Below, piece after piece: positions 1,141 to 29,234 of a stretch of 64,000 bases of DNA (the first letter of the stretch is position 1; every line of letters begins with the position of its first letter). The translations under genes were made by a program, and so were the position numbers. The DNA comes from Vulcanimicrobiales bacterium (GTDB taxonomy: Bacteria > Vulcanimicrobiota > Vulcanimicrobiia > Vulcanimicrobiales > Vulcanimicrobiaceae). The stretch covers positions 288,001 to 352,000 of the forward strand of contig JBBRLI010000001.1 of NCBI GenBank assembly GCA_038231455.1, written 5' to 3'. The notes beneath the pieces are model-generated. The model had not been told where the DNA came from, did not search any database, and saw nothing but the letters and a program-made list of their open reading frames with translations.

Positions 1141-1746
1141 ATGCACGATCCACGCTTCTTCGCCCGCGTCGACGAGAGCCCCGACGAACGCTTTTACGAA
1201 CCGGCGCGGCTCGTCGAGCATATCGATTCCGGCGCAATCGAAACGGTCACCGAACTCTATCGCGAACATCTGCCTGCGGATTCCGACATCTTAGATTTGA
1301 TGAGCAGCTGGGTCAGCCACTTGCCAAGCGATGTGGCGTATCGGTCCGTTGTTGGCCTGGGGATGAACGCCGAAGAGCTCCGTTCAAACCCGCGTCTCAC
1401 GCGCCACGTCGTTCAGAATCTCAACGAGCAACCGCAACTCCCGTTCGGAGATGCCGCATTCGACGCGGCGCTCATCTGTGTCTCGATTCAGTATCTGACC
1501 CAGCCCGTGCGCGTGTTTCGGGAACTGGCACGCGTCGCGCGACCGGGCGCAAAACTGATCGTTACGTTTTCGAATCGCTGTTTCCCAACAAAAGCGGTTG
1601 CCGTCTGGACGGCGACGAGCGATCGCGAGCATCTGCGCCTCGTGGCGGAGTACGTTCGCGATGCCGGCGGTTGGGACGAACCTCTTACCGCAGCGCGGCT
1701 CGGACGCGGCGACCCGCTCTTTTCGGTCGTCGCATCGCGGCAGTAA
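1141..1746 (+). CDS. Class I SAM-dependent methyltransferase
   Basis: DERFYEPARLVEHID, LDLMSSWVSHLP, LPFGDAAFDA, FSNRCFPTKAV. Confidence 0.85.
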   Translation: MHDPRFFARVDESPDERFYEPARLVEHIDSGAIETVTELYREHLPADSDILDLMSSWVSHLPSDVAYRSVVGLGMNAEELRSNPRLTRHVVQNLNEQPQLPFGDAAFDAALICVSIQYLTQPVRVFRELARVARPGAKLIVTFSNRCFPTKAVAVWTATSDREHLRLVAEYVRDAGGWDEPLTAARLGRGDPLFSVVASRQ

Positions 1747-1804
1747 ACCGCTTGGCGTTTGCGCTGTGAAAGGGCGAACGCAAGAGGCTCTCGTACCGCA
1801 CCGC

Positions 1805-2224
1805 ATGCAAGCTCTCGATCTAAGTATCGCTCCACCCCGAGCGCCGCGCGCCGAACTGAGCGGAATCGTCTTTCTCCCGCGCTCCATCGATAAAGCGCGG
1901 GCCTCGCTCCCGGGCGGCAATCTTGGCGAGTACACGATGAAGGGCTTCACCGCGACGATGCTCGAGATGTTCGGGATCACGGCCGAGGACTTTATCGTTC
2001 GCGTCCATGCGGCAACGACCGACGAGGAGATCGCGGCATTCGTGCGCGCGACCGCAAGCGCCGAACAAATCGCCGCGTGGCAGGCGCTCGTTGGGAAGCG
2101 TCTGCCGCGAAACGGCGACCGCGCTGCGGCGATCGAACATTATCCGTGGCTTGCGAATCGTCCCGATCTGATCCTCACCCTCGATGTTCTCGAAGAGGAC
2201 GATCGCCAAATGTTCGCGCGCTAG
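1805..2224 (+). CDS. DUF5069-like protein
   Basis: ATG at 1805; LDLSIAPPRAPRAELSGIVFLPRSIDKARA...LGEY resembles the DUF5069 N-terminus. Confidence 0.7.
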   Translation: MQALDLSIAPPRAPRAELSGIVFLPRSIDKARASLPGGNLGEYTMKGFTATMLEMFGITAEDFIVRVHAATTDEEIAAFVRATASAEQIAAWQALVGKRLPRNGDRAAAIEHYPWLANRPDLILTLDVLEEDDRQMFAR

Positions 2225-3975
2225 AGAATCTTCCCGTCATCGTCGTCGCCCAGTAAAAACGGACGAAGGAGCGGCACGGGCGGGTTGCCGTGCGCGAGTA
2301 ATGCTTGGTGAAAGCCCGCAAGCGTGAACGACGTGCCCATCTTCTTCTTATAGTCCGCGCGTAACTTGAGGATCTCGAGTTTGCCGAGCGTGTAGTACCC
2401 GTAGAGCGGGTCGCCCGTTCCACGTCGCGCTTCGATGCGCGAACTCGCCGGATCGACAAACGCTTGTTTTTGGAAGAAGTCCATGGCCGCTGGAACCGTC
2501 ATGCCTTGCGTGTGCATCTTCACGCCGACGACGTACCGTGCATTGCGCAGGATCGCTTCGCGCAATTGCATCAGACGCACGCGCGGATCGCCATCGCCCC
2601 AACCTTCATCGACGATCATCTGCTCGCAATAGTGCGCCCAGCCTTCGACGAACGAGTTTGCAGCGAGCAATTTTCCCGTGAGCGAGAGCTTTAAATGTTT
2701 GTCGATGATGTAGTTGGTGTAGTGGCCGGGGTAGACTTCGTGCGCGCTCACGATCGGACGCTCGAAATCGTTGAACGTCTCAAGATAGCTCTGCTGAACT
2801 TTAGGCGGGTCCTTGGGATCGACCGGCGTCACGTTATAGTACGCTTGCGTCGCGACGCTCTCGAGCGGCCCCGGAGCATCCATCGATGCAATCGATGTCT
2901 GACGCTCGAACTCGGGCGTGAGCGTGACTTTGATGTCGGCATCGGCTGGGAACTCGATGATGTGCTTGCGCTCTTCGAACGCGCGCAGCTTCACAAGATC
3001 GGCCTGCGAGGCTGGAATGAGGCCGGCGGCCGTCGGATGGATGCGTGCGACTTCATCGATCACGGCCTGAACGGACTTATTCGGATCGATTTGCTTGGCG
3101 ACCGCGACCATCTGGGCACGCGTCTGAGCGAGCGCGACGACACCGACACGCAAGTACGCATCGAGCGGCATGTCGATCGCTTCTTCATACTTCAGCCGCG
3201 CGGTATAGTTGGCTGCTCCGATCGCAAAATTCCCAACCGGATGCGTGACGAAGCCCGTTTTGAGCCAGCGAGCGAAATCGCGCGTTGCGTCGACCGCTGC
3301 TTGCGTCGAGGCGACGAACTCCGCTCGGAGCGTCTCATCGCCCGCCGTCGGGAACGCTTCGGGGACGGTCGCCTTGAGAAACGAGACCGCACCCATCGCG
3401 TCATCGTACGCGATTTGCGCGTTGTACTTGTCGACGGCCCTCAGGTTGACGCGTGCTTGCGCGAACATCGCGGGAATCTGTTTCTCGCGCGCGACGATCT
3501 TCGCTAGGCGAATTGCATCGGGCGCAAACTTACGGCTGAGGATCGAGAACACACCGCCCGTTGCAATATTCACGTAGTCATCGGCGTTATGGCGCCAGCG
3601 CTTCATCGCGTTGTTCTGCAGCAAATCATCTTGAATGGCGTTGATCACCATCATCCAGTCCAACCGAACCGAAGGCGAAAACGCCTGAGAATCGAGCTTC
3701 GTGAAACGCTCGAGGTAGTCGCGATCGAGGTCGATGCGCACCGCAAAATCGACCGCCGAATACGAGCCGAGCCGCGCATCGAACTGATGCAGTCCCGCGT
3801 TCGTTGCCGTCACCGGAGCCGCCGCAAAACCGGCGTCATAGTACGCCTTGGCTAGGACTGCGAACGCCGCATCGCCTTCGCCCGACGGCTCGACCGATCG
3901 AGCGGGGGTACCGGTGAGGGACAGGGCAACAAGAACTGCCGCCGCGACGAAACGGCGAAGGCGTGCGTTCATCAT
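2221..3975 (-). CDS. DUF885 family secreted protein
   Basis: Signal peptide after MMNARLRR; HEVYPGH, FVEGWAHYCE and YYTLGKLEI motifs; true start near 3975 rather than 4431. Confidence 0.85.
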   Translation of the reverse strand: MMNARLRRFVAAAVLVALSLTGTPARSVEPSGEGDAAFAVLAKAYYDAGFAAAPVTATNAGLHQFDARLGSYSAVDFAVRIDLDRDYLERFTKLDSQAFSPSVRLDWMMVINAIQDDLLQNNAMKRWRHNADDYVNIATGGVFSILSRKFAPDAIRLAKIVAREKQIPAMFAQARVNLRAVDKYNAQIAYDDAMGAVSFLKATVPEAFPTAGDETLRAEFVASTQAAVDATRDFARWLKTGFVTHPVGNFAIGAANYTARLKYEEAIDMPLDAYLRVGVVALAQTRAQMVAVAKQIDPNKSVQAVIDEVARIHPTAAGLIPASQADLVKLRAFEERKHIIEFPADADIKVTLTPEFERQTSIASMDAPGPLESVATQAYYNVTPVDPKDPPKVQQSYLETFNDFERPIVSAHEVYPGHYTNYIIDKHLKLSLTGKLLAANSFVEGWAHYCEQMIVDEGWGDGDPRVRLMQLREAILRNARYVVGVKMHTQGMTVPAAMDFFQKQAFVDPASSRIEARRGTGDPLYGYYTLGKLEILKLRADYKKKMGTSFTLAGFHQALLAHGNPPVPLLRPFLLGDDDDGKIL

Positions 3976-21726: not shown

Positions 21727-22473
21727 ATGGAAGATCAACGCCCGAAGCGCGCGCCGCTCGGCTTTAGCAAACTTCTCGATAGCGCGCTTGTCGGTTACAC
21801 CGCGCGAGCGCCGCTTTACGTCCTCGTCGCCATTGGCGTGTTCGCATTTCAACTCATCGCGATGCCGTATTCGGCGTACGATGCGACCGACCAGAAAGCG
21901 CTCATCGGCCTGCTCGTGAATTCGCTTGCCGATTCATTCCTCGTCGCTGTCGTTTGCATCGGTGTCGCACGCGACGCAGCGGGTGAAGCGACGTCGGTCC
22001 CAAGTATTCTCTCGACGGCGCTCGAGCGACTGTGGGCCGTCTTCGTCGTCTTGCTCGTGGTGCAAGTGATCGAAGTGTATTTGCTTCCGGCTGTCACGAC
22101 GCTCGAAGGAAGCTTCTACGGCATCCTCATCGCACCGGCCGCACTCTTCTTCGGTGCCCTGCAGAGCGCGGTCGTTATTGCGAGTATCGATCCCGACGCG
22201 AAGTCCGGCCTGATCGTCGCAAAGAGCTTAGGGCGGAGTTTCTTTCTTTCGCTCTCGGGCGGCAATATGGGTCGGACCGTGCTGATCGGCCTCATCGTTC
22301 TCGCGCCGATCCTGCTCGAGTTCGTCCTCGGCGACGTGCTGCACACCCGTCACATTGCAAACACGAATTTCTGGGCGAGCATTCCGATCGACGCGATCGT
22401 CACCGGGCCGACGTCGGCTCTTGTAGCGGTGTTCTATCTCGACGTCCTCAAGCGAGCGAACGCAGCAACTTAG
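21727..22473 (+). CDS. Multi-pass membrane protein, hypothetical
   Basis: About six hydrophobic segments. Confidence 0.7.
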   Translation: MEDQRPKRAPLGFSKLLDSALVGYTARAPLYVLVAIGVFAFQLIAMPYSAYDATDQKALIGLLVNSLADSFLVAVVCIGVARDAAGEATSVPSILSTALERLWAVFVVLLVVQVIEVYLLPAVTTLEGSFYGILIAPAALFFGALQSAVVIASIDPDAKSGLIVAKSLGRSFFLSLSGGNMGRTVLIGLIVLAPILLEFVLGDVLHTRHIANTNFWASIPIDAIVTGPTSALVAVFYLDVLKRANAAT

Positions 22474-23735
22474 CGCGCAGCCTGATCCTGGTTCTTGCGC
22501 GCGAGGACGAGCTCGGCATACAGGGCGTTCGGCCACGCGAAATCCGCGCGCGTGAACTGTTCGGGCCAATTCGCGTCGTACGATTCGTGCAGCCGGTGAT
22601 CGCCAACATCGGATGCGGCAACATAGCCGAGGACGCGCTCGACTTCGACCGGATCGTCGCTCGTAAGCGCTTGCATCACCAGCGCCAGCGGCCAGATGTA
22701 GTTCTTCGGCGTGTGCGGACTGCCGACACCCTCGCCGTACGAGCCGTGATAGAAATACGGGTTGCGATCGGAGAGCACGAAGGCGCGCGTGGCTTTGTAC
22801 ACCGGATCGCGCGCCGAGAGATACCCAAAGTACGGAATCGAGAGCAGTGAGGGGACATTCGCATCGTCCATGACGTTCGCGTGGCCATAGCCGTCGACTT
22901 CGTAGGCATAGATCGTGCCGATATCGAGATGCACTTTTGCGTTCTGCTCGATCCCGCGTTGCACGTCTTGCGCGAGACCCCACGCGTTCGATGCGGTTTT
23001 TTGATCGCCGTACACGTCGCGTTCGATGTCGCCAAGATACCGCAGCACCACCGACGCGAACATATTAACCGGAATGTTATAGTGATACCGGACCGGATCG
23101 TCGGATGGACGGAAGCCCGTCCAGACCATGCCGGTGAATTTTACCGGCGTGCCCCGACCGTTATGTGCGAGCTGGTTGTTCCGATAGTGCGAGCGCGCAT
23201 CGTGATGCTGCTCGATCCGCAGGGTCTCGACAACGCGGATGAACGCGCGCTGGACCTCCGGCGTAAAGATCGCGCGGTCGCTCGTTTCTTTATAATACAA
23301 GTACGCAAACCAAATCGGATAGAGCAGCGAGTCGACTTCGAACTTCTGCTCGACGACGCGATAATTGGCCGAAAACGCGTTAGCGTACGGGTCGATGAGA
23401 ATGTACTTGGCTTGGCGGGCGACGACGCCTCGCAGCGTCCGCGCGACCTCGGTGTCGTGCACCGCAAGCCCGATGTACGGACGGACGACGGCGCTCGCAT
23501 CGCGTAACCACTCGGCCTCGATGTCGCCCGTCGAGACGTAGGTCGTGCCGTCGCGCTGGTGGCTTGCGTGCTTGTTGATCGCCTCGTCGTAGGCGGTGAG
23601 GTAAATGCGGTCGAGGGTCGCCGTCACCGCGGGTGCGAGCGCAGCGTCCGCCCGTCCAGAAAAAGCGCCCGAAAAACAAATGAGCGCAAATGTGAGTGCA
23701 AACACACGAAATGGGAATACCACTCCCATATTCAT
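22470..23735 (-). CDS. Glycoside hydrolase family 125 (exo-alpha-1,6-mannosidase-like), exported
   Basis: TGDIEAEWLRDAS, DPYANAF, KFEVDSL, GFRPSDD, MDDANVPSLL, FAWPNALY; start 23735 or 23729. Confidence 0.9.
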   Translation of the reverse strand: MNMGVVFPFRVFALTFALICFSGAFSGRADAALAPAVTATLDRIYLTAYDEAINKHASHQRDGTTYVSTGDIEAEWLRDASAVVRPYIGLAVHDTEVARTLRGVVARQAKYILIDPYANAFSANYRVVEQKFEVDSLLYPIWFAYLYYKETSDRAIFTPEVQRAFIRVVETLRIEQHHDARSHYRNNQLAHNGRGTPVKFTGMVWTGFRPSDDPVRYHYNIPVNMFASVVLRYLGDIERDVYGDQKTASNAWGLAQDVQRGIEQNAKVHLDIGTIYAYEVDGYGHANVMDDANVPSLLSIPYFGYLSARDPVYKATRAFVLSDRNPYFYHGSYGEGVGSPHTPKNYIWPLALVMQALTSDDPVEVERVLGYVAASDVGDHRLHESYDANWPEQFTRADFAWPNALYAELVLARKNQDQAAR

Positions 23736-23800
23736 CGGCTCAAATTCGTAGTACGATGAGGACAGAATCGCATTCGCGCACCACGCGCACGGAGACCACG

Positions 23801-24589
23801 ATGACGTTCGTCCGCCCACGATCCACCGCCGCGACGACGCTCGTGCTCGTTGTGTTGCTGACGGCGATCGCATCGGCGGAACAAAAGTACCGGGTCGCCG
23901 GCACCGACAGCTTTCAGATCGGCTCGCGCGACCTGCGCAGCGAGATCTCCTACGACGGCATCCAGACGCTGACCATCTCCACGCGCGGCAAAGCCAAACA
24001 CTACGTCGCCAAGGTCGATTATCTGCGCACCGATCAGGGTGCAAAGGCGCGCGTTCGCGGGTCGTATGAATCGACGGTCGGCGCGAGCGGAGACCAAACC
24101 GATGGTCCCAACCGCGATCCCGACTATCTGACGGTTCTCAACCAACCGTTTGCCGTCCAACTCGATGCATCGACGATTCGCGACCTCTCTCGGCTCCAAG
24201 CGCCGGTACCATTTGATTTTCCGTCCCCGATGACGGGTGCGCCGTTACATGGGTCACTCAAGCACATGAGCGATGGGACACTCGGCGGAATTCGGGTTCT
24301 GGGAGTTGCGTTTTCCGCAACCGGTCAGGTCCACGGGCCGCTCCCCGATCATCCCGGAATGATGCTCGCGGGATCGATCACGATGAACGGAACCGCGTAC
24401 TACACGTACGACTCGGCGCTCCTACTCGCCTTAGATGCCACACTTTCGATCGCGGGAAACCTCGCGAGTTCCGATCGCCACGATCCGGTAACGATCGTCT
24501 ATAAGCGAACGATTCGCGCCGACCAACCGACCGCGCTGCACGAAGCCCGAGCGGCCACCGCAGCACCCGCGCTCATCACCGAACACTAG
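23801..24589 (+). CDS. Exported hypothetical protein
   Basis: GGAG RBS, ATG at 23801, signal peptide ending ASA-E. Confidence 0.7.
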   Translation: MTFVRPRSTAATTLVLVVLLTAIASAEQKYRVAGTDSFQIGSRDLRSEISYDGIQTLTISTRGKAKHYVAKVDYLRTDQGAKARVRGSYESTVGASGDQTDGPNRDPDYLTVLNQPFAVQLDASTIRDLSRLQAPVPFDFPSPMTGAPLHGSLKHMSDGTLGGIRVLGVAFSATGQVHGPLPDHPGMMLAGSITMNGTAYYTYDSALLLALDATLSIAGNLASSDRHDPVTIVYKRTIRADQPTALHEARAATAAPALITEH

Positions 24590-24668
24590 CTTCCACCCGC
24601 AGGCCAGAACGTGCGTTTGGGGTAAAGTCCGAAACTCTTACCACTCGCAGCGCGGTCTAGCCAAACGA

Positions 24669-25328
24669 ATGAGCGCGCTCGCACCACTCCTCGGGGAGTA
24701 CCGATTGACCGTACCGGCGATGTCGCCGGCTTCGATGCGCGCGACGAAAGCGGCACCGAGTCCCGAAACCTTCGAAACGATCGTCGATGACTACCAGCGC
24801 CGCCTCTACGGCTTCGCGCTGCGTATGACGGGTAACCGTGAAGACGCCGAAGAGATCGTTCAGGACGCCTTCGTTCGCGCCTATCGCGCCCTTGCCAAGA
24901 TGGACGCCGAGCAACGAAGCGAGCTGCGCCTGCAGCCCTGGCTCTATACGATCACGCTCAACGTTACGCGCAATCGCTTGCGCTCGAAGCGTCCGACGAA
25001 CGTCGCGCTCGACTCGCTGGCTGATCCCGATGCGCTCCTGAACGAGACCCAAGAGGGTCCCGATCAGCCGGAAGCGATTGTGGAACGCGGCGCCGACATG
25101 GTGCTCGTCGAGCAAGCGCTCCTGCAGCTCCCAATGCATTTACGCGCCGCAGCGACGCTCCGTTTTATCGAAGGCCGAAGCCACCCGGAGATCGCGGAAA
25201 TCTTGAACCAACCAATCGGAACGGTGAAATCGCACGTTCACCGAGCGGTACGCATCCTGCGCCGCATCCTCGGGCCGCAAGTCGGACGCATCGTGCAAAA
25301 CGAGGAGAAGTCCGATGAAATGCTGTGA
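24669..25328 (+). CDS. ECF-family RNA polymerase sigma factor
   Basis: Region 2 DAEEIVQDAFVRAY, WLYTITLN; region 4 EIAEILNQPIGTVKSHVHRA. Confidence 0.93.
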   Translation: MSALAPLLGEYRLTVPAMSPASMRATKAAPSPETFETIVDDYQRRLYGFALRMTGNREDAEEIVQDAFVRAYRALAKMDAEQRSELRLQPWLYTITLNVTRNRLRSKRPTNVALDSLADPDALLNETQEGPDQPEAIVERGADMVLVEQALLQLPMHLRAAATLRFIEGRSHPEIAEILNQPIGTVKSHVHRAVRILRRILGPQVGRIVQNEEKSDEML

Positions 25329-26091
25329 TGTCGAAGCCCTTTGGGACGAAATGCGCGAAGGCATCGAACCCCGTCGCGAACACGTGCTCGCGCATCTGCG
25401 CGGTTGCCCGCCGTGCCAAGACATGTATTCGCAGTACGAGGGCATCGCCTATTGCCTGACGTGCCTCCCAATCGTGGAACCGCCGCAGAGCATGGTGCCG
25501 AAGATCCTCGAGCACATCCGCGAGTCGGTCGCCCGTAAAACCCCGCCGCCCGACAACATCGCAAAGATGGAGTCACCGATCGGTGTCCTCCACGTCGCCT
25601 TCCGTAACACCGGCATCACCTACATCGGCCTCAACCGAGGCGAAGACGACGAAGAACTGATCGCCCGCGTTGCACGCCGCCTCCACCGCGGCCTCGTCCC
25701 CTCAAGCGCCCCGCAGTGGGTCACCGACGTCGTCGCCCGCTTCTTCCGCACGCACACGGTCGAAGCCGACAAGATCGACATCAGCGACCTCACGCCGTTC
25801 GAACAACTCGCGCTGCGAAAAGCCCACGAAATCCCCCCGGGCGAAGTCCGCAGCTACGGCTGGATCGCAAAAGAAATCGGCCACCCCCACGCCGCACGAG
25901 CCGTCGGCCAAACCATGGCCCGCAACCCCGTAGCACTGCTCTTCCCATGCCACCGCGTAGTCGATTCAGCCGGCGATCTCCACAACTACGCATACGGTAT
26001 CGAGATCAAAGCCCGTCTCCTCGAGATGGAAGGCTACCACCGCCCAGCAACGCGATCGACGCTACAAACCACACTACTAAAAATTCAATAA
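25315..26091 (+). CDS. zf-HC2 (ZAS) anti-sigma domain fused to methylated-DNA-protein-cysteine methyltransferase (Ogt/MGMT)
   Basis: N-terminal HLRGCPPC (HxxxCxxC); C-terminal IPPGEVRSYG, ARAVG, NP, PCHRV active site. Confidence 0.88.
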   Translation: MKCCDVEALWDEMREGIEPRREHVLAHLRGCPPCQDMYSQYEGIAYCLTCLPIVEPPQSMVPKILEHIRESVARKTPPPDNIAKMESPIGVLHVAFRNTGITYIGLNRGEDDEELIARVARRLHRGLVPSSAPQWVTDVVARFFRTHTVEADKIDISDLTPFEQLALRKAHEIPPGEVRSYGWIAKEIGHPHAARAVGQTMARNPVALLFPCHRVVDSAGDLHNYAYGIEIKARLLEMEGYHRPATRSTLQTTLLKIQ

Positions 26092-26307: not shown

Positions 26308-26334
26308 GCCGGCCGCAACGAGCCGGCTTTTTTT
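26308..26334 (+). terminator. Intrinsic terminator
   Basis: GCCGGC-CGCAACGA-GCCGGC followed by T7. Confidence 0.8.
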
Positions 26335-26431
26335 GCCCAAACCAAAAGCCAAAATCCCTGAAAAAAAAAGCAACCCGCCGTTCAAGCACGCCCACCGAGT
26401 TCGAAGAACGAGTAATCCAAAAATCGTGCCA

Positions 26432-26575
26432 GGCTTCGGTTGGAGTGGGGGTGTGGCGGGGCGTGCGAGCTTTTCGCGGAGCCCGGAGGGCGGGAGCGAA
26501 AAGTCGCCGAGTAAGTTTTTCCCATGGATGGGAAAAACTGGACGCCCCCGCCGCACCCCCACCCCAACCGAAGCC
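26432..26575. repeat. Long imperfect inverted repeat with two internal hairpins (REP/MITE-like element or structured ncRNA)
   Basis: GGCTTCGGTTGGAGTGGGGGTGTGGCGGGGCGT pairs with ACGCCCCCGCCGCACCCCCACCCCAACCGAAGCC; inner stems GCTTTTCGC/GCGAAAAGT and AGTTTTTCCCAT/ATGGGAAAAACT. Confidence 0.75.
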
Positions 26576-26650
26576 CGCCACCCGAGGCAATTACGAAAGA
26601 GACAAACCGCCAACTAGGAAGAAAGGCGGTTTGCGCCAACGTCCCACACC

Positions 26651-27352
26651 GTGTCAAAGCACGTCCTATTAACGGGTTTCGAGCCGTTTGGCCCCCACAA
26701 GGTAAACCCGAGCGAAATGCTCGTGAAGAGCCTCGAAGGACGCCTAATAGCCGGCCGCCTTATCGTTATCCGGGTCTTGCCCTCGGAGACGCGCACCATG
26801 CACGAACGTCTGGAGACGGCTCTTCACGATGAACAGCCGGACCTGATCATCGGCGTCGGTCTTGCCGCCGGCCGCGGGAGCCTCGCGCTCGAACGCCTGG
26901 CCGTAAACGTCCTTGATTTCGACATGCCAGACGCGGTTGGCGTGCAGAAAAAAGATGATGTGATCGCACGCGGCGGACCGGATGCGCGAATCGCATCGAT
27001 CCCGTTCAATGAAATTGTCGATGGCTGGAAAGCCGCCGGCATCCCGGGATATATCTCGAATTCGGCGGGAACATATTTGTGCAATCAGTGGCTCTATGAA
27101 TCGCTGACGCTGGCGAGCGTGGCGGCACCGCCGATTCCGGTCGGCTTCTTACACGTTCCGCTTTTGCCGGGTCAGGCGATGGAAGCCGGCGCTGAGAAAA
27201 CCCCGTCGATGTCGCTCGACACGATGCGCCGAGGACTGGAATCGATGATCGAAACGATCGTGCCGTGGATCGAATCGCGACCGCACGAAAAACTTACCAA
27301 GTCGGGACCGTCCGTTTGGATTCCCCGCGGATTACGAGAAGTTGAACGATAG
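26651..27352 (+). CDS. pcp: Pyroglutamyl-peptidase I
   Basis: LLTGFEPFG, NPS, LERLAVN, SAGTYLCN, GFLHVP. Confidence 0.93.
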   Translation: MSKHVLLTGFEPFGPHKVNPSEMLVKSLEGRLIAGRLIVIRVLPSETRTMHERLETALHDEQPDLIIGVGLAAGRGSLALERLAVNVLDFDMPDAVGVQKKDDVIARGGPDARIASIPFNEIVDGWKAAGIPGYISNSAGTYLCNQWLYESLTLASVAAPPIPVGFLHVPLLPGQAMEAGAEKTPSMSLDTMRRGLESMIETIVPWIESRPHEKLTKSGPSVWIPRGLREVER

Positions 27353-29234
27353 CGAACACGGCGATCCCCGGATCGCCGCCATCCCCGACGTCCACGGACA
27401 CGCCAAAGGCGAACACAAACCGTATGCGGAGGAACGGCCGATTCCGCTCTCCGCGCGGATGCTGTTCCTCTGGTTCTTCCATGCGTGCAAGCGCGGTTCG
27501 CCGCGATTCCTGATGGTCTCCGACCACATGAATTACCTGACGTTCGAAGATCCCGCAGCGGTGAATCTCGTGCGCCGCGCTCTCAAACTCGCGCAGGCCG
27601 GCGATCTTTACGGCGCTGCGGAAACCGCCGGCGTCGATGTCGGCCACGCGGCGGTCGTCTCCGACGGTCTACGGCGTGGAATGCGCTATTCGATCGGTGC
27701 TGAGGTCGACAACGATCCGCGCGCTCGGCCCGATGCGCAGAACATCGTCGATGCAATGAAGCCCGACGGCATGATCCGCTCGGTGCACTTCCTTACGATC
27801 GATCACCCGACGCACGGCGCCGGTTGGAATTGGCCGTTCGATAATCCCGAGTTCAGCTCGCTCTTCGACCATGTCGGAGTCGAGAAGACGTGGGAACTCT
27901 ACATGGCAACGCTCATCGATGCAATCGAACGGCTGCCGGGCAATATCGTCGGTCACTTCTACGTACCCGCGATCTTCGGCCACTGGCCCGACGATGCGAC
28001 ACTCGAAAAATACGAAGACCAACTGCTCGACGCATGCGCCGCGCGCGAAATGGCGATCGAATTCAATACGCGCTTTCTCTATCGCGACCGAACCGACGAA
28101 GAGCGAGCAAAGTACATCGCGGCCAACCGTCGCCTGTTGCGCAAAGCCAAAGAGCGCGGCGTAGGGATCGCGGTCGGCGCCGATGCGCACAGCCCCAAAG
28201 ACCAAGGCCACGCGTTCGATCAGGTCCTCGCGATTCTCGATGAACTCGAAATCAACGAACTGGTCTTTCCGATCGGCGGGCGTCTGTTGCGCGTTGCGCT
28301 GCGTGTCGTCAAAGAACCCGAACCGCCCGCACCCGAACCGCCGCCGGTGCCCGAACCCGTCAAGCCGGTTCGCAAAGCGCGCACAAGTGAGTCGCCCAAA
28401 GAGCGACCCTCCGATGAAACCCCGGCCAAGCCCGACAAAGAAACGAAGCGCCGCACGGGCGGAACGAAGCTCGAAACGACCGACACGCCCGAACGCGAGA
28501 GCACGGACAGCGCGACGGTCCTCGAGTCGAGTGCCGATACACCCGCACCCAAAGCGAAAGCCAAGAAGGCAGCGCCCAAAGATGCGCCTTCGCACGCAGT
28601 CGGTGCCGTCTCCGATGCGATCAAATCCGTGGCTGAGGCAGCGGTGAACGCCGTCGCGTCCATTCTGCCAGGTCTCAAAGCGAAGGCTCCGTCAAAGACG
28701 AAAACCGACGCAACCGCCGTGAAGCCGGAAGCGAAATCCGCGTCCATCAAAGCCCCGTCCCTCAAAGCCGCGCCCGCAAAAGCCAGTCCCGCGAAGGCCG
28801 CGCCAGCGAAGGCTGCGCCGATAAAGGCGATGCCCGCCAAAGCCGTTTCGGTGAAGGCGAAAGCGCCCGTAAAACCCGCTCCGAAAGTCATGGCGAAAGC
28901 AAAAGCACCGGCGAAACCGGCACCGAAACCGGCACCGAAGAAAGCGGCGGCGAAAGCCGCGCCTAAAACGAAGCCGGCCGCTAAAGCGAAGCCCGCATCG
29001 AAGGCGAAAGCCGCGCCGGTCAAGGCCAAAGCGAAAGCCGCGAAAGCGAAGCCGAAGGCAGCACCGAAGCGCGCCGCGGTGAAACCCGCGAAAAAAGCCG
29101 CGAAGCCCGCAGCGCATAAGCCTACGCCGAAGAAACCCGCGAAAAAGGCACCGCCTCGACCGGCTCGCCCTGCCGCGAAAAAACCCGCTGCTAAGAAATC
29201 AGCGGCGAAGAAAACAACGAAGCGCTCGCGCTAA
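27342..29234 (+). CDS. PHP-domain hydrolase (HisJ-like) with long Lys/Ala/Pro-rich histone-like tail
   Basis: DVHGH, SDH, AEVD, SVH, GADAH metal ligands; C-terminal ~300 aa low-complexity with AKPA/KKAA repeats. Confidence 0.8.
   Translation: MNDSEHGDPRIAAIPDVHGHAKGEHKPYAEERPIPLSARMLFLWFFHACKRGSPRFLMVSDHMNYLTFEDPAAVNLVRRALKLAQAGDLYGAAETAGVDVGHAAVVSDGLRRGMRYSIGAEVDNDPRARPDAQNIVDAMKPDGMIRSVHFLTIDHPTHGAGWNWPFDNPEFSSLFDHVGVEKTWELYMATLIDAIERLPGNIVGHFYVPAIFGHWPDDATLEKYEDQLLDACAAREMAIEFNTRFLYRDRTDEERAKYIAANRRLLRKAKERGVGIAVGADAHSPKDQGHAFDQVLAILDELEINELVFPIGGRLLRVALRVVKEPEPPAPEPPPVPEPVKPVRKARTSESPKERPSDETPAKPDKETKRRTGGTKLETTDTPERESTDSATVLESSADTPAPKAKAKKAAPKDAPSHAVGAVSDAIKSVAEAAVNAVASILPGLKAKAPSKTKTDATAVKPEAKSASIKAPSLKAAPAKASPAKAAPAKAAPIKAMPAKAVSVKAKAPVKPAPKVMAKAKAPAKPAPKPAPKKAAAKAAPKTKPAAKAKPASKAKAAPVKAKAKAAKAKPKAAPKRAAVKPAKKAAKPAAHKPTPKKPAKKAPPRPARPAAKKPAAKKSAAKKTTKRSR

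Follow-up and report, generated by a model that had tools for sequence, protein, structure and literature searches.

Introduction

Two lines of knowledge have so far stood apart: thiol stress is sensed by soluble zinc anti-sigma factors, and sigma factors of the extracytoplasmic function (ECF) groups ECF122 and ECF203 adjoin a gene for an O6-methylguanine-DNA methyltransferase (MGMT) without an identified regulator. Here we describe a locus that joins both. It lies in a window of 64,000 nucleotides (the whole stretch of DNA that was analysed: positions 288,001 to 352,000 of the forward strand of contig JBBRLI010000001.1, Vulcanimicrobiales bacterium assembly GCA_038231455.1), and consists of an ECF sigma factor gene overlapping the gene of a methyltransferase that bears a recognisable zinc-associated anti-sigma (ZAS) domain. 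The locus resembles a SigR/RsrA switch with an MGMT-fused anti-sigma factor; the fusion is real, conserved and more than a product of chance, and it is a candidate for the regulator that the sigma+MGMT ECF groups are missing. Positions given below count from the first letter of the window.

Among the systems described so far, RsiW, the anti-sigma factor of SigW, is a membrane protein that is released by regulated proteolysis, and the Ada_Zn_binding domain is the methyl-sensing switch of Ada. In the model put forward for SigH, the sigma factor is released once thiols are depleted "by oxidation or alkylation", and the SigH/SigR promoter consensus is GGAA(C/T)A-16 nt-(C/G)GTT (PMC3489674). The ECF classification (Casas-Pastor et al. 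2021, PMC7826278) describes ECF122 as 100% from Actinobacteria, with "no putative AS factors", an MGMT at position +1 and a CTCAC/CGTCTAC promoter. It also places ECF203 in Actinobacteria, with an MGMT at +1, no anti-sigma factor, Ada_Zn_binding and TetR nearby and no autoregulation, and its main text states that this group "lacks any obvious regulator"; neither group has a characterised member (PMC7826278). In a 2022 review, ECF122 is listed with an unknown mechanism and ECF203 with possible TetR control (PMC8999054). Within the full-text literature searched, which covers few subscription journals, neither a description of an anti-sigma/MGMT fusion nor an experiment on a sigma+MGMT pair was found.

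Results

An ECF sigma factor gene overlaps the fusion gene

The upstream gene (24669..25328, + strand) encodes a protein of 219 aa, identified as an ECF (group 4) sigma factor with Pfam and TIGR02937. Sigma70_r2 (E 8.4e-17) and Sigma70_r4_2 (E 5e-13) are its sole significant Pfam matches, region 3 and region 1.1 are absent as in ECF (group 4) factors generally, and the score against the TIGR02937 sigma70-ECF model is 96.7 bits for a cut-off of 42.9. In a profile search of the PDB, the closest solved relative is SigW (5wuq_A, E 1.1e-27), compared to E 8.8e-21 for Mycobacterium tuberculosis SigH and 8.7e-21 for RpoE. Against the NCBIfam model SigH_actino the protein reaches 79.3 bits for a cut-off of 251.55, so it is no actinobacterial SigH equivalog. 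Sigma identity across 30 relatives is 73-87%, regions 2 and 4 being nearly invariant, and the sigma factor is conserved far more strongly than its fusion partner.

The sigma factor also has an extension of ~33 residues on the N-terminal side of region 2 (24669-24770). Its start, MSALAPL, is kept in most relatives and the remainder is variable. This extension is reminiscent of the unstable longer SigR' isoform of Streptomyces, which is made from the sigma-dependent promoter.

The downstream gene (25315..26091, + strand) encodes a soluble ZAS-MGMT fusion of 258 aa, characterised with Pfam, NCBIfam, an alignment and a structure model. Its ATG at 25315 lies inside the sigma gene, whose TGA occupies 25326-25328, giving an overlap of 14 nt (25315-25328). 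A Shine-Dalgarno sequence, GAGGAG (25302..25307, + strand), is located within the 3' end of the sigma gene, 7 nt before this ATG. There is no membrane helix in the fusion: the highest 19-residue Kyte-Doolittle mean is 0.98, and none of the 31 family members reaches 1.6.

The N-terminal domain belongs with the zinc anti-sigma factors

The N-terminal domain of the fusion (residues 1-75; 25315..25539, + strand) was delimited from invariant residues, profile homology and the complex model presented below. It starts with MKCC and continues to HLRGCPPC (HxxxCxxC at 25393-25416), which together provide the ZAS ligand set C3-x23-H27-x3-C31-x2-C34; a family-specific invariant loop, C47-x2-C50 (25453-25464), follows. 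C3, H27, C31, C34, C47, C50 and H67 are invariant in 31/31 aligned members, and so are W10, D11, R14, L48 and L51. Since these Cys and His residues are invariant in proteins that are only 51-69% identical overall, the pattern is more than chance. Helices in the structure model span residues 3-14, 21-30, 32-42 and 61-73; the His closes helix 2 and the two Cys open helix 3, an arrangement that matches solved anti-sigma domains.

With the single fusion protein as query, the NCBIfam anti-sigma model gave E 0.0026, and a single-sequence search of the PDB with the N-domain gave non-significant matches to RsiW (E 0.45) and RslA (E 0.69). Across the family, zf-HC2 was detected at E<=0.1 in 15 of the 31 members, with a best value of 2.6e-4. 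A profile of residues 1-82 was then compared to 177,635 PDB sequences. Four matches were obtained at E<=10, the top two being RsiW (E 0.0015) and RslA (E 0.19); profile positions 17-74 align with RsiW 19-77, including HLxxCxxC and the "VE(A/P)P..." helix that comes next. The same profile gave 397 matches at E<=0.001 among 1.84 billion representatives. The 28 matches at E<1e-20 were taken as the family itself and fragments of it, and the next 40 were scanned: zf-HC2 was above the Pfam cut-off in 35 of these 40 nearest non-family relatives, several of which also contained RseA_N. Judged by the family profile, the fusion begins with a ZAS-type anti-sigma domain of ~75 residues.

The C-terminal part is a complete methyltransferase

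The remainder of the fusion comprises an MGMT N-terminal (ribonuclease-like) domain (residues ~86-155; 25570..25779, + strand; model pLDDT, the predicted local distance difference test, >90) and an MGMT C-terminal DNA-binding/active-site domain (residues 161-240; 25795..26034, + strand). The latter is matched by PF01035 with E 2.8e-28, and the fusion scores 89.6 bits against TIGR00589 ogt (cut-off 46.4); Methyltransf_1N was found by Pfam in 5 of the 31 family members. In an AlphaFold model computed from the alignment of the 31 family sequences, residues ~80-240 have a pLDDT >90. Foldseek superposes this half on M. tuberculosis OGT (4bhb; E 1.6e-12, TM-score 0.76 by target) and on the C-terminal part of E. 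coli Ada (1sfe; TM-score 0.82 by target, ~169 columns).

The active site of MGMT proteins is built from the acceptor Cys of the PCHR(V/I) motif, an Asn hinge, a Tyr, an Arg-finger and a Glu. In the fusion, PCHRV occupies residues 211-215 (25945-25959) with C212 as the acceptor, and P211, C212, H213, R214, V215, N204, Y181, R195 and E239 are all invariant in 31/31 aligned members. Because every catalytic residue is kept, the MGMT half most likely repairs O6-alkylguanine. Neither Ada_Zn_binding nor an AraC helix-turn-helix (HTH) domain was detected by Pfam in the fusion, the 31 members having been scanned for Ada_Zn_binding.

Modelling places the N-domain between sigma regions 2 and 4

Residues 30-212 of the sigma factor were modelled together with residues 1-82 of the fusion, each with its own 31-row alignment and with the MGMT half excluded. 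The complex scored 0.78 (0.75, 0.78 and 0.78 in the individual runs), compared to 0.00 for the best of three controls; the runs share at least 92% of their contacts and the pLDDT of the partner is at least 82. The score lies above the mark of the method, which 58 of 80 solved complexes attain, as do 2 of 110 mismatched pairs; with the self-made alignments used here, these counts apply only approximately. In the model, sigma region 2 (residues 32-73) contacts partner helix 4 (56-72) and sigma region 4 (143-209) contacts partner residues 37-51; overall, the partner interface comprises residues 7-15, 37-57 and 60-72. The contacts of lowest error join sigma residues 147, 151, 162, 166, 167 and 197 to partner residues 44-51, which form the invariant AYCLxCL loop. 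Sigma regions 2 and 4 thus hold the modelled N-domain from both sides, in the manner of solved ECF/anti-sigma pairs, and the prediction supports binding.

Sigma factor and fusion are conserved as a pair

A protein search with the fusion gave 2061 relatives at E<=0.001 among 2812 candidates, and identity among the best 120 of these 2061 was 63-97%. The source names of the relatives listed include MGMT from Candidatus Elarobacter, Velthaea or Eremiobacteraeota. Among 151 sampled genomes of the phylum, a full-length fusion (query residue 1 to at least 241) was found in the window genome, in 71/71 other genomes of the same family and in the 1/1 genome of a second family of the order. The remaining families of the phylum matched the MGMT part only, a tally that includes the unpublished genome G128 with its partial match.

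The sigma gene was located directly 5' of the fusion gene in 33/33 loci examined (the window's own, that of one near-identical metagenome-assembled genome (MAG) and 31 others). The overlap is 14 nt long in 19 loci and 11 nt long in 6; in the other 8, a gap of 2-8 nt separates the genes. The pair is thus conserved, and the arrangement supports translational coupling of sigma factor and fusion. No sigma orthologue was detected in the 5 genomes (95-97% complete) of a sister family of the class at a self-set threshold of E<=1e-25, applied without a positive control. Every sampled member of this poorly known, largely uncultured soil lineage has the pair, and the sigma factor is among the most conserved regulators of the lineage; it is therefore probably the main cytoplasmic stress sigma factor there.

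Much of this architecture had been read from the letters in an earlier note. The 14-nt overlap of the two open reading frames (ORFs; 24669..25328 and 25315..26091), the HxxxCxxC motif with its upstream Cys, the lack of a transmembrane helix and the complete Ogt/MGMT domain with PCHRV, now backed by PF01035, TIGR00589 and the fold match, are all as it stated. That the N-domain is a ZAS anti-sigma domain, also claimed there, finds its support in the family profile (the RsiW match and the zf-HC2 relatives) and not in single-protein Pfam. Of the checks that it had proposed, the survey of the pair came out in its favour, and the complex model supports the predicted binding. Its remark that such a pair might already appear in ECF classifications proved right in kind, ECF122 and ECF203 having an MGMT at +1.

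A predicted autoregulated promoter precedes the sigma gene

The predicted autoregulated ECF promoter (24631..24659, + strand) consists of a -35 element GAAAC (24631-24635), 17 nt, and a -10 element CGGTC (24653-24657). The upstream consensus of the family is G(A/C)AAC(C/T), then GT(C/T) 18-19 nt past AAC (AAC-N18/19-GT[CT]). This motif stands at a fixed place upstream of the sigma gene in 26 of 32 family loci, and the 6 loci that lack it are those for which we had assumed a GTG start. As only 11 nt separate the GTC from the sigma ATG, the sigma mRNA is predicted to be leaderless or nearly so. RNA-labelled libraries had word shares of only 0.04-0.06, and four runs gave only contigs of relatives, which cannot show starts and none of which spans the sigma/fusion junction by 31 letters on each side.

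The predicted regulon is of the thiol-stress type

A two-block matrix was built from 21 distinct sites upstream of family sigma genes and used to scan the whole window genome, for which a rough self-made gene call gave 3443 genes. The window's own promoter site scores 18.8 bits. Ten genes of this genome have a motif of at least 12 bits with its GTC 8-16 nt before the start codon, while column-permuted matrices gave 0.95 +/- 1.04 genes and 0/300 of them reached 10. At other spacings, the true matrix found 1 gene (17-25 nt) and 2 genes (26-34 nt).

At 10 bits or more, the candidates are the sigma gene itself and genes for a NifU-like protein, a 3-hydroxyisobutyrate-dehydrogenase-like protein, triosephosphate isomerase, a NamA-like old yellow enzyme (OYE), a class II aldolase, a Bax1-I membrane protein, an HxlR regulator, peptide deformylase, cysteine synthase A (cysK), thioredoxin-disulfide reductase, UvrA, pirin, an unknown 127-aa protein, a zinc-containing alcohol dehydrogenase (Zn-ADH), a glutathione S-transferase (GST)-like protein, a PDZ/Lon-C protease, a short-chain dehydrogenase/reductase (SDR), a molybdopterin oxidoreductase and an aldo-keto reductase (AKR). 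Two OYE genes are found among the candidates of this genome. A 228-aa ORF (10.0 bits) and ClpB (9.8 bits) are just at or below the 10-bit line. The identity of the thioredoxin reductase is given by TIGR01292 (402.8 bits).

Orthologue footprints were collected from ~30 genomes of different genera, loci of unpublished genomes being dropped, and a site was counted at 9 bits or more and at matching spacing. Such a site precedes the thioredoxin reductase gene in 20/25 loci, clpB in 14/24 (20/24 at 5 bits or more), uvrA in 10/26 (18/26 at 5.5 bits or more) and the NifU-like gene in 6/23. The background in the window genome is 0.71% of genes at 9 bits or more and 1.8% at 5 bits or more.

The genome also has an alkylation-repair set of its own, composed of a canonical Ada, an AlkB-like protein, an AAG-type glycosylase, two Tag-like proteins and three HhH-GPD proteins. 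Before ada, the alkB-like gene, the AAG gene, the two tag-like genes and two HhH-GPD genes, the best scores for the sigma motif are only -3.2 to 2.3 bits, for a genome median of 0.7. An Nth-like glycosylase was rejected as a regulon member: its 12.5-bit site is 131 nt before the only plausible start, a geometry that is unsuitable. The fusion itself thus appears, from the motif scan, to be the sole alkylation-repair activity under this sigma factor. Since the motif precedes the thioredoxin reductase gene, clpB and uvrA and not ada, the alkB-like gene or the glycosylase genes, the regulon is predicted to resemble that of SigR/SigH, a thiol-stress regulon, and not the Ada regulon.

At many loci of the window genome, 10-16 nt lie between the end of a predicted sigma-dependent promoter and the start codon. 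By implication, the mRNAs of at least this regulon would be leaderless, among them those of trxB, clpB and uvrA in many genera.

The canonical Ada (354 aa) is encoded on contig C3 of the window genome (C3:167627-168691, - strand; 1492..2556 of locus L019), next to a gene for the ATPase of a phosphate ABC (ATP-binding cassette) transporter. It has five Pfam domains, among which are Ada_Zn_binding, HTH_18/AraC, Methyltransf_1N and DNA_binding_1, and no motif of the window sigma factor was found upstream of its gene. The earlier note had inferred a repair-coupled adaptive response; an alkylation-repair regulon is not what the motif scan predicts. It had also called the system Ada-independent, which is apt in the sense of a system running in parallel and fails in the stricter sense, as the genome encodes a canonical Ada.

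Sigma+MGMT modules recur in distant bacteria

A gene-neighbourhood scan with the fusion as query gave 15 distant loci. In 11 of them (L004-L011, L013, L014 and L018), an ECF sigma gene, whose product is 32-46% identical to the window's, ends 0-4 nt before the MGMT gene or overlaps it. By the names of their records, these 11 loci come from Acidimicrobiia, Actinomycetota, Thermoanaerobaculia/Acidobacteriota, Dormibacterota and a Kiloniellaceae (alphaproteobacterial) MAG. Ahead of the MGMT fold, these proteins have only ~30 residues, a stretch that resembles by eye the helix-4 segment of the fusion, and 9 of the 10 scanned carry a C-terminal Ada_Zn_binding domain above its cut-off. No ZAS-like ORF was found within ~4 kb of the 11 loci, except for a 63-aa frame with HxxxCxxC ~2.8 kb away in L013; as none is near, the MGMT is the only candidate regulator there. 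The sequence TGCAAC-N16-G(G/T)GTTC, of the same promoter class as the window's, precedes the sigma gene in 10 of the 11 loci.

Five genomes of the same order (loci L187-L191) have a second module, sigma+MGMT-Ada_Zn, beside their ZAS-MGMT pair. The sigma factors of these loci are 37-49% identical to the window's, Ada_Zn_binding was present in 2/2 partners scanned, and their promoters showed no fit to the window-family matrix. In the window genome itself (93.7% complete), only the fusion and Ada were found, and no sigma+MGMT-Ada_Zn module. An exact-pattern scan of three genomes with such a module gave 6, 2 and 3 sites, compared to 1, 1 and 1 for the reversed pattern. These sites precede the module's own sigma gene, EamA, MazG-like and RDD genes, an IS110 fragment and three ORFs without a Pfam family, and show no coherent regulon. 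Judged by domain content, sigma+MGMT recurs as a module that comes with one or the other of two zinc-thiolate domains and in which the MGMT active site is kept throughout.

Other features of the window

A terminator-like hairpin with a T-run (26308..26327, + strand), found by consensus scan 217 nt past the fusion stop, is a possible operon end; the scan is weak, with 6 sites compared to 4.0 +/- 1.7 in shuffles. In the 560-nt gap past the fusion gene there is also a near-perfect hairpin of ~157 nt (26425-26582), the RNA fold of 26400-26600 having an energy of -116 kcal/mol. Four partial copies of this hairpin, with 76-84% identity, are present on contigs C4 (two), C9 and C10 of the window genome, and it may be a small palindromic repeat element. 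A match to a plant microRNA family of Rfam at the same position, on both strands, was rejected: it reaches 42.9 bits for a gathering threshold of 150 and only reflects the long hairpin.

Further downstream, an ORF of 630 aa (27342-29234, + strand) matches no Pfam family at E<=0.001. The last ~300 residues of its product form a long run rich in Ala, Lys and Pro (KAAPAKA-like), reminiscent of histone-H1-like tails. On the other side of the pair, a GH125 alpha-mannosidase-like gene (- strand; longest frame 22470-24044) overlaps a 297-aa ORF (23696-24589, + strand) without a Pfam family. A codon-usage call trims the former to 22470-23735 and the latter to 23801-24589.

Discussion

We read this locus as a cytoplasmic ECF switch of the SigR-RsrA (SigH-RshA) type, in which the zinc anti-sigma domain is fused to a working O6-alkylguanine-DNA alkyltransferase, a reading to which we give about half of our confidence. 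In such a switch, the sigma factor and the fusion would be made together from a sigma-dependent, probably leaderless promoter. Thiol-reactive stress (oxidants, electrophiles, alkylating agents) would modify the zinc-thiolate centre C3/C31/C34 and/or the C47xxC50 loop on sigma region 4, and the modified N-domain would let the sigma factor go. The freed sigma factor would turn on a regulon of thiol repair, protein quality control and nucleotide excision, and more of the sigma-fusion pair would be made as well, so shutting the response down again. The MGMT half would provide DNA-alkylation repair made one-for-one with the sigma factor, inside the response to the same chemical class; a possible link between the two halves is that the same electrophiles attack thiols and DNA. 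By analogy, oxidation or alkylation of the ZAS cysteines is the most likely trigger, because the closest functional model is SigH/SigR, which is freed by thiol oxidation or alkylation.

Several observations weigh against this thiol switch or limit its support. On the window's own fusion, zf-HC2 is below the Pfam cut-off (E 0.036; 14.6 bits compared to 22.2), so that the ZAS assignment rests on profile evidence, and the N-domain modelled alone has a pLDDT of 45-65. The score of the complex may reflect a memory, on the part of the model, of solved ECF/ZAS complexes, in which case it would indicate likeness and not binding. As to the regulon, the training set of the matrix consisted of sequences upstream of the relatives' own sigma genes. 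The footprint fractions overstate their support, and should be read as conservation and not as statistics, because the relatives are not independent and the matrix comes from the same family. The NifU-like gene has the best site of the genome (20.5 bits) and yet keeps it in only 6/23 relatives, where the matches may be paralogues. The peptide-deformylase site resembles an ordinary TATAAT promoter, and the intergenic site between the OYE and Zn-ADH genes (contig C18:46151-46205) is a palindrome, GTGCAAC-N9-GTTGCAC, that scores on both strands and could equally be a repressor operator. Finally, a plain RsrA-like switch explains neither the strict retention of an active-looking MGMT nor the sigma+MGMT modules that lack a ZAS domain, which leaves room for MGMT-dependent signalling.

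Models in which alkyl acceptance matters for signalling appear, taken together, somewhat unlikely, though the recurrence of the module with its retained MGMT active site fits them. The broadest of them, which we put forward tentatively and consider rather improbable, would see sigma+MGMT modules as a multi-phylum ECF counterpart of the Ada response. An alkyl acceptor (C212 of the MGMT for O6-alkylguanine, or a thiolate of the Ada_Zn or ZAS/CxxC domain for a phosphotriester or an SN2 agent) would double as the anti-sigma factor; since the reaction would be irreversible and one inhibitor lost would be one sigma factor freed, the module would act as a stoichiometric damage counter, wired in this Eremiobacterota family to a whole thiol-stress regulon. 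If it were true that MGMT or zinc-thiolate cysteines free the sigma factor as alkyl acceptors, this would be an irreversible self-alkylation switch acting via sigma sequestration, a mechanism unlike that of Ada.

One form of this idea, that of the earlier note, makes the MGMT half the sensor: irreversible alkyl transfer to C212, or docking on damaged DNA, would change or destabilise the fusion, and one repair event would free one sigma factor, giving an ECF-based adaptive response. Human MGMT is destabilised after alkylation. The catalytic residues of the fusion are invariant in 31/31 members at 51-69% overall identity, where a mere scaffold could have lost them, and sigma+MGMT recurs as a two-gene module in 11 of the 15 distant loci. 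There, the C-terminal Ada_Zn_binding domain of 9/10 MGMTs scanned and the lack of a nearby ZAS-like ORF point to the MGMT as regulator, and the ECF classification describes ECF122 and ECF203 in a like manner. However, no dedicated alkylation-repair gene other than the fusion is part of the predicted regulon, an Ada is encoded in the genome as well, and a ZAS domain with a Cys as first ligand is already a known type of sensor. The modelled sigma interface, too, involves only the N-domain, residues 1-82 being the part of the fusion that the model covered. On balance we consider an MGMT sensor unlikely.

A second form would resemble the N-terminal part of Ada, with the ZAS zinc-thiolate centre or the C47xxC50 loop as methyl acceptor (from SN2 agents or DNA methylphosphotriesters) and the MGMT holding the DNA; methylation would break the contact with the sigma factor. 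In favour of this view, the MGMT partners of relatives carry a true Ada_Zn_binding Cys4 domain in the place of the ZAS domain, so that sigma+MGMT occurs with two different zinc-thiolate domains. C47, L48, C50 and L51 are invariant, partner residues 44-51 make the lowest-error contacts with sigma region 4 in the model, and SigH is activated by thiol alkylation as well as by oxidation (PMC3489674). Against it, Pfam scans of the 31 members gave no homology of the N-domain to Ada_Zn_binding, RsrA-type domains are known as redox sensors and not as acceptors of methyl groups from DNA, and the regulon speaks for a general thiol-stress output. This variant, which is pure inference, is in our view quite improbable.

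Least of all do we expect that the genes are merely co-transcribed, the N-domain being a zinc finger that serves some other purpose, such as contacting DNA or protein during repair, and the sigma factor being controlled elsewhere: the sub-threshold zf-HC2 match on the single protein, the poor folding of the N-domain alone and the classification of ECF122 and ECF203 as lacking anti-sigma factors would fit this, but the profile homology of the N-domain to anti-sigma factors, the complex score of 0.78 compared to 0.00, the translational coupling in 33/33 loci and an autoregulated promoter typical of sigma/anti-sigma operons make it highly improbable.

Comparison with known systems

The thiol switch proposed here has its nearest counterparts in SigR-RsrA of Streptomyces and SigH-RshA of Mycobacterium and Corynebacterium (ECF12). 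It shares with them a soluble ZAS anti-sigma factor encoded right after the ECF sigma factor and a Cys as first zinc ligand before HxxxCxxC. The predicted GAAAC-N17-CGGTC promoter has the same geometry as that of SigH/SigR and would, like it, be autoregulated. The regulon, here by prediction, likewise comprises thioredoxin reductase, clpB, uvrA, cysteine synthesis and a Lon-type protease. Unlike in SigR-RsrA, the anti-sigma domain is fused to a complete MGMT and has an additional invariant CxxC loop and His (C47, C50 and H67). The -35 element is G(A/C)AAC instead of GGAAT, and the host belongs to Eremiobacterota/Vulcanimicrobiota according to the source names of the relatives, whereas the SigR/SigH systems are actinobacterial.

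SigW-RsiW of Bacillus subtilis (5wuq) is the best solved match for both the sigma factor and the N-domain; unlike RsiW, the fusion has no membrane segment and carries an MGMT instead. With ECF122 and ECF203, the locus shares the MGMT at +1 of the sigma gene and differs by its non-actinobacterial host, its ZAS domain and its GAAAC-N17-CGGTC promoter. The description of ECF203 fits the MGMT-Ada_Zn partners of the other loci better than the pair of the window.

E. coli Ada has a homologous MGMT half and also couples an alkyl-accepting repair protein to transcription; NF011964 matches residues 89-240 of the fusion with E 2.2e-20, far below its cut-off. Unlike that of Ada, the output of the fusion would run via sequestration of a sigma factor and not via DNA binding. 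With stand-alone Ogt/MGMT proteins, finally, the fusion shares the two-domain fold and all active-site residues, and it is set apart from them by an extra N-terminal anti-sigma domain of 75-80 residues and by its obligatory pairing with a sigma gene.

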